A stretch of DNA of 30,631 bases from a virus (Duplodnaviria; Caudoviricetes). Under the pieces are notes generated by a model. That model saw only the letters and a list, made by a program, of their open reading frames with translations, did not search any database and was not told the origin of the DNA. Position numbers and translations under genes: made by a program. The stretch lies in IMG/VR virus record IMGVR_UViG_3300025653_000167, positions 1-30,631 of that record; one strand, given 5' to 3'. Of this stretch, positions 6,787 to 29,776 are shown one piece after another. Position 1 is the stretch's first letter; every line of letters begins with the position of its first letter.

Positions 6787-7911
6787 CTACTTAGGGCGGA
6801 TTTTCATGAACCAGCCCGTGTCGTTGCCTTCGATGAGCCAGCGAGGCAGCCAGTTCTTGCGAGAGTACGCGATTCCCGCGCCTCCCTTGTTGCTTATATA
6901 GCCACCGGAAACCAAGTTGGCCTCACCAAATGGGTCGTTGTGGATGAAATGGGATGGAGTAAAGCCGACGATTACGCTCCAGTGGCCGGTGCCTGTAGGT
7001 TTTGAGACCGGGCCTTTGTGTAGCCAGCCCACTGGTACTGGGTAGCCGTTAAGTATTTCGTTTTGTAGGTCTTCTGCCGTCCCATCCAGCACGAAGGTTG
7101 GTTTTAGTCCCAGTGCAGTTAGGGCTGCTTTTTGGGCGTTGGGGTCTGTGGTGTCACCGAAGCGGGCGCGGAGTTTGTTGTATTCATAGTCGCCCGAGAT
7201 CTTGCCGTAGTAGCGGGCAACCATTGCGCAGCTGGAACTGAAGCACTGGCGGTAACCGCGTGGTCCGTCGTCTGCACCAAGCTGGTATTCGTAGGGCACG
7301 CGCAGTAATTTTTCCTTCTCTTTACGTGCCGGCTTTTTTGCGCAGTTCTCGTTCATTAGTGCAATTAGTTTTTTCGGGTAGGTGGGGTCTGTTGCGTAGC
7401 TTTCTCTGTAAAGCCAGCGGGCTGCTTCCTCTCTGGTGGGCGCGTTGTTGCAGCCTTTGTAATGTTTATAGTCTTTGTACCAGTGATCGACTAGATAAAT
7501 TACGCAGGTCAGTAGGTCGGGGAAGTCGATAAAGCTATCGGTGATTGTGATCCACTGCCCGTTGATAAATACTTGGGTTTTGTGGTCGCTGCCTGCACCT
7601 TTGAGGCCGAAAAAGTTATTGCGGCCTGAAACCAGTTGGCCGTAACTTGACTCCAGTGCCCACTGTGCTGCTGCAAGTTCGGGGAATTTTGCGCCAGATG
7701 CTTCCGCTGCGTGGTAAACGCCTTCCCAGCTATTGGGAAAGTTAATTTGTTTACCTCCGGTGGACCAGGTGTTGAACCAGGGGTTTTTGCGGTCGAGCAG
7801 GGATGGGTCGGCCTTTAGGATGGCCTCCTCCAGTTCTGTGATGGCTGCCATTTGGTGGGGCAGCGCTTTGTAGTAGCGGAATAGATCAATCAGGCGGAGC
7901 TTTTGGGACAT
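6787..7911 (-). CDS. Modular endolysin: N-terminal accessory domain + GH73 glucosaminidase + C39-like cysteine peptidase
   Basis: AQWALESSYG, NNFFGLKG, YATDPTY (GH73); QCFSSSCAM, GHWSVIVGF, HNDPFG (C39 Cys-His-Asp). Confidence 0.88.
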   Translation of the reverse strand: MSQKLRLIDLFRYYKALPHQMAAITELEEAILKADPSLLDRKNPWFNTWSTGGKQINFPNSWEGVYHAAEASGAKFPELAAAQWALESSYGQLVSGRNNFFGLKGAGSDHKTQVFINGQWITITDSFIDFPDLLTCVIYLVDHWYKDYKHYKGCNNAPTREEAARWLYRESYATDPTYPKKLIALMNENCAKKPARKEKEKLLRVPYEYQLGADDGPRGYRQCFSSSCAMVARYYGKISGDYEYNKLRARFGDTTDPNAQKAALTALGLKPTFVLDGTAEDLQNEILNGYPVPVGWLHKGPVSKPTGTGHWSVIVGFTPSHFIHNDPFGEANLVSGGYISNKGGAGIAYSRKNWLPRWLIEGNDTGWFMKIRPK

Positions 7912-8208
7912 TGGACCAGGGGGAGCGGATGGTCATGGCACCACCCAAAAGGCGGCTTTTTCCGGTTTGTAGTGCATCGTTTGGTGCTTCGTGATCCACG
8001 ACAGGTTTGGGGGCTGGCGGTTGTTGTGCCAGCCACTCGTTTACTGCACTGTCTATCTCTGGTTTGATGGTCAGCGCTTTGGGAAGACGACCTTCAGGGC
8101 TTTAAGGATCAGTTGGACCCAGCTGTTCTCTTTGATGGGAAGCAGGGTGATGATTTCGCTGCCAGCGGCAACCAAGATTGCTAGGACAGTGGCGGTTGTG
8201 GGATCCAT
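7886..8208 (-). CDS. Predicted -1 frameshift-extended form of the holin-like protein (107 aa)
   Basis: In-phase slippery C CCA AAG at 8083-8077; -1 frame open for 63 codons to TGA 7888-7886 with no ATG/GTG/TTG between its upstream TAA (8104-8102) and well past the slip site. Confidence 0.6.
8071..8208 (-). CDS. Holin-like small membrane protein (45 aa, MDPTTATVLAILVAAGSEIITLLPIKENSWVQLILKALKVVFPKR)
   Basis: Hydrophobic helix + amphipathic helix + basic C-terminus, upstream of endolysin; missed by the ORF track. Confidence 0.75.
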   Translation of the reverse strand: MDPTTATVLAILVAAGSEIITLLPIKENSWVQLILKALKVVFPKR

Positions 8209-8306: not shown

Positions 8307-8624
8307 ATGGACCATCACATTGAGGATGGCGAATATGTAAGTAAAAAGGAAGCGAAAGCCAGATTTCGTCAATCAATTCTTAAGGAGTGGAAGAACAGGT
8401 GTGCTTACTGCGGGGTGGACTTGGGTAGGTCTGCCACGCTGGATCACGTTCACCCCAAGATGAAGGGTGGGCATACGCACCAGCAGAATTTGGTGGCTTG
8501 CTGCTTTGCCTGCAACATCAGCAAGTCCGCTGAAGACTGGCTGGAGTGGTTTAGGGAGCAGGATTTTTGGGAGCCGCATCGGGAGGATGCGATTATCAGC
8601 TGGATTACGGAAGGTCTGTTTTAG
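8307..8624 (+). CDS. HNH endonuclease
   Basis: CAYCG...TLDHVHPKMKGG...NLVACCFACNISK. Confidence 0.92.
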   Translation: MDHHIEDGEYVSKKEAKARFRQSILKEWKNRCAYCGVDLGRSATLDHVHPKMKGGHTHQQNLVACCFACNISKSAEDWLEWFREQDFWEPHREDAIISWITEGLF

Positions 8625-8787
8625 GGTCCCAGCCCATGCCTTCTAAGTACATGCGGGCGATGTATTCGTCTTCTGCATATCGGCAGATGCTGCCGGTACA
8701 GGCGCGGTAATAGATTTCGCCGCGCTCGTTTTCCAGCTGTTCCAGTCGAAAACTTTTGCCGAAGTCGGTGCTGTGTACGACTGTCAT
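8605..8787 (-). CDS. Hypothetical phage protein (60 aa)
   Basis: ATGA-coupled to 8784-9032; overlaps the HNH 3' end by 20 nt. Confidence 0.65.
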   Translation of the reverse strand: MTVVHSTDFGKSFRLEQLENERGEIYYRACTGSICRYAEDEYIARMYLEGMGWDPKTDLP

Positions 8788-9032
8788 TGGCGGCCGATGC
8801 GCATTTCAATGTGCCGCACTCTAGTTTCTAAGTCGCTGAGGCGTTCCTTTGAGTCGTTCTTAAGTTCTTGGATGTCTGAGGCGACGGTGTTTACGGATTG
8901 CTCCAGCTTGGCGACTTGCATAAAAAGGCCGCCCAACCCAATGACTGCGGCAGTCAGTAGGGCTGGGACGGCTTGATTCCAAGGGTTTGGTGGCGCTGCC
9001 ACATCTACCGCGACCTCTTCACTAGAACCCAT
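8784..9032 (-). CDS. Membrane-anchored coiled-coil protein, possible lysis accessory
   Basis: AVPALLTAAVIGLGGLFM hydrophobic segment then heptad-rich LEQSVNTVASDIQELK...LETRVRHIE. Confidence 0.7.
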   Translation of the reverse strand: MGSSEEVAVDVAAPPNPWNQAVPALLTAAVIGLGGLFMQVAKLEQSVNTVASDIQELKNDSKERLSDLETRVRHIEMRIGRQ

Positions 9033-9061
9033 TGCGCTGAATTGGTCGCCTCTTTTATAGG

Positions 9062-9196
9062 TTAGCGACCCTGACCGCGCAGGAGTTTGCGTGTGCCGCG
9101 TGGTTTAGAGCGTTTGCTGTTGCCTTGGCGGGTAAGTTTTGGTTTACCTGCCTGGTGCTCCACTCGCCCCAGTGCTGTTTTTGACTTAACAGCCAT
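9062..9196 (-). CDS. Small basic protein (44 aa, MAVKSKTALGR...RKLLRGQGR)
   Basis: TAATG-coupled to 9196-9384; 14 Lys/Arg versus one acidic residue. Confidence 0.75.
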   Translation of the reverse strand: MAVKSKTALGRVEHQAGKPKLTRQGNSKRSKPRGTRKLLRGQGR

Positions 9197-25916: not shown

Positions 25917-25942
25917 AAAAAGCCGCCGGGGTTAGCGGCGGC
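25917..25942 (-). terminator. Intrinsic terminator at the end of the chaperone -1 frame
   Basis: GCCGCCG-CTAACCC-CGGCGGC-TTTTT; the TAA stop is in the loop. Confidence 0.8.
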
Positions 25943-26464
25943 GTTTGGCCTTATCCATGGCCTTCTCTTGATCCTCGTTCAGGATCTGGAAGTAGGCGCT
26001 CCAGCCGATCAGCTCTTCGGCGGTCATCTTGGTCCGGATTTCGCTAAGGGTTAGCCCCAGCTCTTTGGCAACCCCGAATTGGAGTAGGAGCCAGTTGTCC
26101 TTGCGAATCTCGGCGCTCAGGATTTTGGGTCGATTGGCTCTTGATCGTCGGTGAGGATTGCCAGCATCAAAGACTGCAGATCTTTATCCTTTACTTCGTT
26201 TTTAAGAACGTCGATCTCGCCAGGGCTAAAAAGTTTCTTGCCGGACTCGTCCAGTGCTTTTGCGATAAGCAGCTGCAGTGCAAATGCGTTGGCGTCGTCA
26301 GACTTTGCCTGCTTTTGAGCGCGTTCGCGTTCTGCTGCAGTCAGCGGGCTGACCCACATCTCAAAGATGCTGCCGTCCGAAAGTTCTACTTCCCTTTTGG
26401 TTGGTTCGAGGTTGGCTGCCTTACGCAGGCGGTCAATCGCACGCACTGGAATGGAGGCGGGCAT
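25932..26464 (-). CDS. Tail assembly chaperone, -1 frameshift product (gpGT-like, 177 aa)
   Basis: C CCA AAA at 26129-26123; -1 frame reads ILSAEIRKDNWLLLQFGVAKELGLTLSEIRTKMTAEELIGWSAYF...KRRR to TAA 25934-25932. Confidence 0.85.
26117..26464 (-). CDS. Tail assembly chaperone (gpG-like, 115 aa)
   Basis: Between major tail and tape measure genes; ends DPKS at a slippery heptamer. Confidence 0.88.
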   Translation of the reverse strand: MPASIPVRAIDRLRKAANLEPTKREVELSDGSIFEMWVSPLTAAERERAQKQAKSDDANAFALQLLIAKALDESGKKLFSPGEIDVLKNEVKDKDLQSLMLAILTDDQEPIDPKS

Positions 26465-29307: not shown

Positions 29308-29493
29308 TTAATACGCTCTTTTTACAATCTTACCTCTGGCACGCCTTGGCGCCTTTGCTTCCACTAGCGAGGCGTGGTAAATCGTCGCTCCAGTCATCTC
29401 TATGTCGGCGCTGCGCTCTAGATGGTCGCCGTAAGGCATGTCCTCATGCCAACGGCGATTATTGTGTGACACGTAGAGACGAACCAGTTTCAT
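29308..29493 (-). CDS. Small hypothetical protein (61 aa, MKLVRLYVSHNNRRWHED...)
   Basis: ATG at 29493-29491; stop 2 nt before the adaptor start; fills the gap. Confidence 0.55.
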   Translation of the reverse strand: MKLVRLYVSHNNRRWHEDMPYGDHLERSADIEMTGATIYHASLVEAKAPRRARGKIVKRAY

Positions 29494-29776
29494 GCCGACC
29501 CGTAAAAATGCCGATGCTGGCTCCAGCGTAAAGCCGGCGGTGGTCAAAGAAAATCCGGCTCTTCCCGGTGACAAAGTACGCAAACTTAAAGATGTTGCTC
29601 TTGAAGTGCGCAGGATGCGAGAGGAAGAGGGCCTTGATATTTCGCAAATTGGCGAAAAATTGAAGGTCAGTTATGACGTGTTGAATCAGCTGATTCTCCA
29701 GTCATATAAGAGCACCATGAATACTCCTGTGGTGTTTGAGGTGCAGGAGAAGATTCGGCTGGGGATCGAATACTGA
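29492..29776 (+). CDS. HTH protein, antisense to the late arm
   Basis: VRRMREEEGLDISQIGEKLKVSYDVLNQLI HTH pattern; stop abuts the capsid terminator. Confidence 0.72.
   Translation: MPTRKNADAGSSVKPAVVKENPALPGDKVRKLKDVALEVRRMREEEGLDISQIGEKLKVSYDVLNQLILQSYKSTMNTPVVFEVQEKIRLGIEY

Follow-up and report, generated by a model that had tools for sequence, protein, structure and literature searches.

Gene A, a shift-prone heptamer, and an open −1 frame

The window analyzed here is a 30,631-nucleotide (nt) stretch of a tailed-phage genome (IMG/VR record IMGVR_UViG_3300025653_000167, positions 1 to 30,631), the genes of which match Synechococcus phages. The subject of this report is gene A, which encodes a 45-amino-acid (aa) membrane peptide and is followed by an open −1 frame, frame B, that leads into the endolysin gene (Table 1). 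Gene A ends in TTC CCA AAG CGC TGA, and the original prediction, made from the letters of the window, held that ribosomes slip by −1 at the C_CCA_AAG in this ending, so that one gene yields a 45-aa holin and, at a fixed ratio, a 107-aa form with a soluble Pro-rich tail that might serve as antiholin, endolysin adaptor, or envelope-spanning factor. The positions claimed for gene A, the heptamer, the TAA closing the −1 frame upstream (8104 to 8102), and frame B all proved correct, as did the 159 nt between gene A and the endolysin ATG (7911) and the length of the predicted A-B product (44 + 63 = 107 aa). The TAA is present in the window but is polymorphic in general (a variant at 8104; missing in L002 to L004). 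The first GTG, TTG, and ATG of frame B lie 25, 42, and 46 codons downstream of the gene A stop, and the last 26 nt of B overlap the start of the endolysin gene. Frame B reads as a helix, a Pro-rich linker, and a conserved terminus, LLGG-x-M-x-I-x-x-PW; the version in the window is a short one, the tails of 227 complete loci ranging from 44 to 107 aa, with a median of 87.

In-phase shifty heptamers are rare in the window: four such heptamers together occurred 3 times in 9,476 codon positions (38 open reading frames [ORFs] listed by hand), and 2 of the 3 were the ends of gene A and of the gene for the tail assembly chaperone, each 3 codons before the stop. The chaperone gene ends, as had been claimed, in GAC CCA AAA TCC TGA and has a 63-codon −1 ORF. 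The shared ending noted at these two sites, a codon ending in C and then TGA, is present in both genes of the window but is variable among relatives.

Table 1. Positions of the features discussed (window numbering)
Feature	Position	Strand	Description
Gene A	8071..8208	-	45 aa; belongs to PHROG 22542, of unknown function
Slippery heptamer C CCA AAG	8077..8083	-	In phase with gene A; C comes next
Gene A stop TGA	8073-8071	-	
Frame B (−1)	7886..8077	-	Open for 63 codons past the slip (8077-7889); its stop is at 7888-7886
Endolysin	6787..7911	-	Glucosaminidase and C39 peptidase; ATG at 7911
Gene X	8784..9032	-	82 aa, membrane helix and predicted coiled coil; second holin or spanin candidate
HNH endonuclease	8307..8624	+	Opposite strand, between gene X and gene A
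Tail assembly chaperone G and its −1 frame T	25932..26464	-	Frame T at 25932-26129; heptamer C CCA AAA at 26129-26123

Conservation of the heptamer and selection on frame B

Homologous loci (n = 393; gene A in 391) were gathered from IMG/VR, metagenomes, GTDB, and cultured phages, and 276 of them were distinct: 233 with B in the −1 frame (231 assigned by profile and 2, the podoviruses 7B11-B and S-B28, by eye), 39 without B, 1 with a separate B gene (S-CRES1), and 3 cut by a contig end, which were excluded. Each scan returned the best 80 of several hundred matches, so that distant members are undersampled, and relatedness among the loci inflates all counts given here. Matching stretches in IMG/VR were estimated at ∼1,100 and ∼940 for two clades.

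A strict in-phase heptamer (C_CCA_AAR, A_AAA_AAG, or G_GGA_AAG) was present in 231/233 loci with B, compared with 10/39 loci without B. This difference was also found in loci selected by gene A alone (178/179 versus 10/28) and after thinning to <80% nucleotide identity (57/57 versus 5/19). In the clade in which gene A ends in Phe-Pro-Lys (FPK), loci with B read TTC in 136/136, CCA in 135/136, and AAG in 131/136 cases, whereas, of the 450 Pro codons elsewhere in gene A, 70 were CCA, as were 10 of 23 at this site in FPK loci without B; the site is thus kept beyond what the protein needs and lost where the −1 ORF is lost. In the clades ending in Lys-Lys (xKK), the codon before the two lysines specified nine different amino acids and had A as its last base in 95 of 96 cases; it was followed by AAA (96/96) and AAG (96/96), against a background of 14/268 in long ORFs. 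S-EIV1 has G_GGA_AAG. The expectation that CCCAAAR would stay in phase with a start-less −1 ORF was borne out in the FPK clade, while other clades have A_AAA_AAG or G_GGA_AAG instead. The base after the heptamer was C in 175/231 loci. Heptamers of the types C_CCA_AAG, A_AAA_AAG, and G_GGA_AAG rank as the most shift prone in Escherichia coli (Atkins et al., PMC5009743; this and the other sources given below by PMC number are cited from excerpts), and the three main heptamers of the B loci coincide with the three so named.

The tail chaperone served as an internal positive control. Its relatives (L431 to L510) had a strict heptamer in 55/67 cases, so that the gene A site is kept more strictly than the window's own G/T site, C_CCA_AAA. 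The other 12 chaperone relatives read GAC CCC AAG, with the −1 frame still open. At L043, B is kept and the heptamer is lost (CCG), with a GTGA overlap, a possible switch from frameshifting to coupled initiation; at L088, L089, L090, and L096, the heptamer is kept and B has shrunk to a 27-codon Arg-rich remnant ahead of the endolysin.

Over 95 disjoint pairs, the ratio of nonsynonymous to synonymous substitution rates was 0.145 for B as a whole and 0.137 for its initial 15 codons, compared with 1.36 and 2.12 in the other frames; purifying selection acts on B right from the junction. No start codon of B was conserved, and its first ATG was missing or lay beyond codon 30 in 201/229 loci. Of the comparative patterns named beforehand as speaking against a −1 frameshift, none held up: Pro and Lys codon choice hardly varies, the −1 frame is kept and under selection, and no independent start is conserved. 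A programmed −1 ribosomal frameshift at the end of gene A is, on this sequence evidence, very probable.

Proteins in which A and B appeared joined were found in a search for longer proteins; their junctions were inconsistent, 49-aa mates occurred among the cluster members, and the DNA of close relatives was split, with A_AAA_AAG. These apparent fusions are probably joins made by gene callers and were left out of the counts. The AlphaFold2 model of the long form (P0140) was of low confidence (predicted local distance difference test score [pLDDT], 59.8; predicted template modeling score, 0.24), and PDB sequence searches gave no match.

Slippage controls

Transcriptional slippage is not supported as a source of the predicted shifted product, C_CCA_AAG being no homopolymer and its last base being fixed as G. 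No insertions or deletions at the junction were listed in 4 DNA-library and 4 RNA-library contig sets, a weak control that does not bear on expression, as the pieces listed had <31 letters on one side, and a scan for promoters and terminators gave nothing beyond chance. Host tRNA-Lys was of the UUU type only (30 loci typed of 71 tRNA matches, from two incomplete genomes), which was not used as support. The slippery site of csoS2 is absent from many alpha-cyanobacteria (PMC12312397) and, for that reason, cannot serve to gauge slippage among these hosts. Some tailed-phage shifts operate without stimulators, at low efficiency (PMC5009743).

Gene A and its neighborhood

The gene A peptide is modeled with a hydrophobic helix (residues 3 to 22, with a conserved Ser-Glu), a loop, and a basic amphipathic helix (residues 30 to 41; AlphaFold2 pLDDT, 88.6). 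It has the small size, membrane helix (KD19 peak, 2.07), and basic C terminus of holins. Its only matches were PHROGs 22542 and 15106, both of unknown function; the best match to a holin family was to one holin PHROG (E = 0.025, 1 of 21 members), Foldseek with the model gave no match, and the ESM Atlas gave hypothetical clusters only. A single Met is found in gene A of the window and in nearly all aligned members, which leaves no second start of the dual-start kind, and no lipobox was seen by eye in gene A, in B, or in stand-alone relatives of B.

An endolysin motif was found within 520 nt downstream in 193/233 loci with B and in 33/39 without it. The order X, A, B, endolysin recurs in the cultured phages S-CBS1, S-CBS3, and KBS-S-2A. 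In the T7-like phages S-B28 and 7B11-B, X-A-B lies between the tail-fiber genes and the terminase small-subunit gene, which is the holin position of T7, and in P60 and S-SRP01, a gene A relative without B adjoins the lysin. Gene A thus occupies, with exceptions, either the holin slot or a position beside a signal-less endolysin. An X-type gene was present ≤1.2 kb upstream in 177/233 loci with B and 26/39 without B; counterparts of gene X gave weak "hemolysin" and "Rz-like spanin" matches (E = 0.002 to 0.03). No holin or spanin name was found for these phages in the annotations or literature examined. The arrangement of gene A and −1 frame B is present, unannotated, in the cultured sipho- and podoviruses S-CBS1, S-CBS3, KBS-S-2A, S-EIV1, and S-B28, which explains a recurring misannotation in these phage genomes, with B either missed or given false starts. 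The name holin given to gene A in the original prediction agrees with the neighborhood and with the anatomy of a membrane helix and an amphipathic helix but is not matched by significant similarity to a holin family. A lysis role of the A/B module is likely, resting on gene neighborhood, and the identity of gene A as the holin is tentative, at somewhat under even odds.

A 4.3-kb microvirus (Microviridae sp., MH572431), in which no endolysin is annotated, carries an unannotated gene A homologue (L303, 1989 to 2126; PHROG 22542, E = 6e−8) with a strong Shine-Dalgarno sequence, placed between its scaffold and replication genes; the homologue is a candidate single-gene lysis protein.

B ends over the endolysin start in 182/183 loci, and in loci without B, the gene A stop lies ≤4 nt from the endolysin start in 22/27. 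As only shifted ribosomes terminate just past the endolysin start in loci with B, endolysin synthesis is possibly coupled to the slip, as a side effect.

Stand-alone relatives of B

B is homologous to PHROG 3316, a protein of T4-like cyanophages (e.g., S-PM2 p161), and to S-CBS2 gp48 and S-CRES1 gp104 (hhalign probability, 96.8%; E = 2e−10), which have their own start and their own hydrophobic or amphipathic N terminus. In S-PM2, S-CRM01, S-B68, and DSL-LC03, members of this family have an annotated lysin nearby. In S-CBS2 (L396, 1684 to 2174) and S-CRES1 (L024, 2462 to 2951), adjacent and separately initiated A-like and B-like genes form a frameshift-free version of the module. By tblastn, no gene A was found in the T4-like cyanophages that encode stand-alone B. 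A profile comparison of gene A with the stand-alone family gave no homology (probability, 2%), so that the myovirus protein is no A-B fusion. A profile search returned 94 B-type proteins; the 25 inspected included stand-alone forms and one B-lysozyme fusion, a 218-aa database protein (P0213) with domain B ahead of a phage lysozyme domain (PF00959). One search for longer relatives gave no B relatives of >176 aa.

Proposed mechanism and alternatives

We propose that most ribosomes would complete the 45-aa peptide and that a small share would slip by tandem tRNA slippage, at a low rate, with the Pro tRNA moving from CCA to CCC and the Lys tRNA from AAG to AAA, to make the 107-aa A-B protein. The gene A product would be a holin-like, membrane-disrupting peptide; A-B may associate with it through the membrane helix common to both and present the conserved C-terminal motif of B to an envelope or lysis-machinery partner. 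In other cyanophages, the same B domain would be anchored by its own N-terminal helix. To this explanation as a whole, in which the slip at gene A makes a minor, membrane-tethered lysis helper, we assign a probability of roughly 0.6.

A number of observations weigh against it, besides the inflation of the counts by relatedness. At the slip site, the strict heptamer was absent from two B loci (L043 and L168) and present in 10 loci without B; no conserved hairpin was found (mean z, −0.41, compared with −0.27 to −0.59 in other windows; pseudoknots were outside the analysis) and no peak of upstream Shine-Dalgarno sequences, so that a low slip rate and a minority product are to be expected. An NTG codon overlaps the gene A stop in 183/233 loci (152 CTG, 22 TTG, and 9 GTG), so that reinitiation could contribute, and the DNA of the 276 loci held no true in-frame A-B fusion. 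As to function, comparisons with holin families, Pfam, NCBIfam, PDB, and known folds gave no significant match for gene A, and gene X is an equally good candidate for the holin or a spanin. No endolysin is adjacent at L005, L043, L267, L269, and S-EIV1; one gene A clade (L283 and L286), with neither B nor an endolysin, lies directly before a gene that resembles a head-tail connector by eye; no annotated lysin was found within 2 kb of the B-like genes of S-CREM1, S-CBS2, and ACG-2014f; and no DNA match was found for P0213, which leaves the B-lysozyme fusion unconfirmed.

Were B instead a separate protein, made by reinitiation at the CTG, TTG, or GTG over the gene A stop, the heptamer would be incidental. 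The frequency of NTG at this position fits such a reading, as do the separate A and B genes of S-CBS2 and S-CRES1 and the GTGA overlap at L043, where the heptamer is missing. Against it, 50/233 loci read CTA, GTA, or TTA there, and 30, including S-CBS3 (CTC TAG), have none of ATG, GTG, TTG, CTG, and ATH in the stretch that reaches from 2 codons upstream of the stop to 7 codons downstream of it; moreover, reinitiation leaves unexplained the fixed synonymous codons before the stop and the three alternative shifty heptamers. We regard it as highly improbable. The remaining alternatives accept the frameshift and differ in what it is for. The long form could be a dedicated antiholin that delays gene A, a recoded counterpart of lambda S105/S107, as the original prediction had suggested among other roles: A-B contains the entire membrane part of gene A, a minority isoform suits a timer, and A and B remain neighbors even as separate genes. 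This role is weakened by the existence of B as a gene of its own (S-CBS2, S-CRES1, and T4-like cyanophages), including phages in which tblastn found no gene A, which makes a purely antiholin function less likely. In addition, 39/276 gene A loci lack B, a parsimony count on the tree of 92 representatives (short sequences, weakly supported) gave 13 changes in the presence of B, and gene A is itself only a putative holin. We consider a dedicated antiholin unlikely.

It is rather improbable that A-B and gene X form a spanin-like or outer-envelope-breaching pair, with X or another gene as the holin. Gene X does have a membrane helix and a predicted coiled coil, its P60 counterpart has a weak Rz-like match (E = 0.03), and B is laid out as anchor, long helix, Pro linker, and conserved tip; yet no lipobox was seen by eye in A or B, X is retained in 26 of the 39 loci without B, and the basic C terminus of gene A, read by the positive-inside rule, suggests a cytoplasmic tail. 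A function outside lysis, in virion assembly or host-membrane takeover, would suit the loci without an adjacent endolysin and the gene A homologue in a small microvirus genome without an annotated one, and the phage frameshifts in the review excerpts are mostly in morphogenesis genes; we judge it quite improbable, as the lysin neighborhood recurs in sipho-, podo-, and myoviruses.

Relation to known systems

The mechanism is of the kind known from lambda G/GT and dnaX; the class of gene differs. Lambda-type tail chaperones make G and GT by −1 frameshifting at ∼30:1 (PMC5009743), and gene A resembles them in having a heptamer a few codons before the stop, a short major and an extended minor product, and no evident stimulator, although the proteins are unrelated and gene A encodes a membrane peptide in a lysis module. 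With E. coli dnaX and insertion sequence-type sites (PMC5009743), it shares the heptamers, with AAG in the A site and mostly C thereafter, but unlike at those sites, no conserved 3′ hairpin or upstream Shine-Dalgarno sequence was detected. Expression of the MS2 lysis gene has been ascribed to a frameshift in the coat gene (Kastelein 1982, cited in PMC10885494 and PMC5009743), and a later title credits termination coupling. Like MS2, loci with B would bring ribosomes to an overlapping lysis start (here that of the endolysin); unlike in MS2, the shift would yield a conserved fusion domain, and in a double-stranded DNA phage. Frameshifts predicted by GeneMarkS near holins and endolysins of Streptomyces BI phages (PMC9671017) likewise suggest recoding near lysis genes; in the excerpt, these are untested software calls near, not in, the holin, in phages of other hosts, and come with no analysis of heptamers or conservation. 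PHROG 3316, S-CBS2 gp48, and S-CRES1 gp104 share the B domain but have their own start and N terminus.

Lambda S105/S107 and phage 21 make holin and antiholin from dual starts, as two isoforms of one small membrane protein. In the case of gene A, a single lysis-cassette gene would likewise yield two versions of a small membrane protein; these would, however, differ at the C terminus, by 44 to 107 aa, and through recoding, there is no sequence likeness, and the holin activity of gene A is putative.

A frameshifted holin is not mentioned in the excerpts of PMC5009743, PMC10885494, PMC6157547, and PMC13704836, and our literature searches, which covered few subscription papers, found no description of such an arrangement, in keeping with the statement in the original prediction that none was known. 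With this locus, phage −1 frameshifting would reach beyond morphogenesis to a probable lysis gene. The locus specifies lysis-protein candidates in the cultured phages S-CBS1, S-CBS3, KBS-S-2A, S-B28, 7B11-B, and S-EIV1, and a synonymous change of a single codon would separate the two products. The broadest reading, which we hold to be doubtful, is that several cyanophage morphotypes share an unrecognized lysis module in which −1 frameshifting gives, out of one gene, a holin-like peptide and an accessory tethered to the membrane, and in which the slip would set the level of endolysin; if true, B would represent a component, missing so far, by which the cyanobacterial envelope is breached, and the gene A peptide would form a new class of lysis protein.

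Two further ORFs of the window deserve mention: a short basic one (9055 to 9186, minus strand; 43 aa) that lies between gene X and the tail-fiber region and matched no PHROG, and one of 94 aa (29492 to 29776, plus strand) that comes just after the capsid gene and runs opposite to the head and tail genes.
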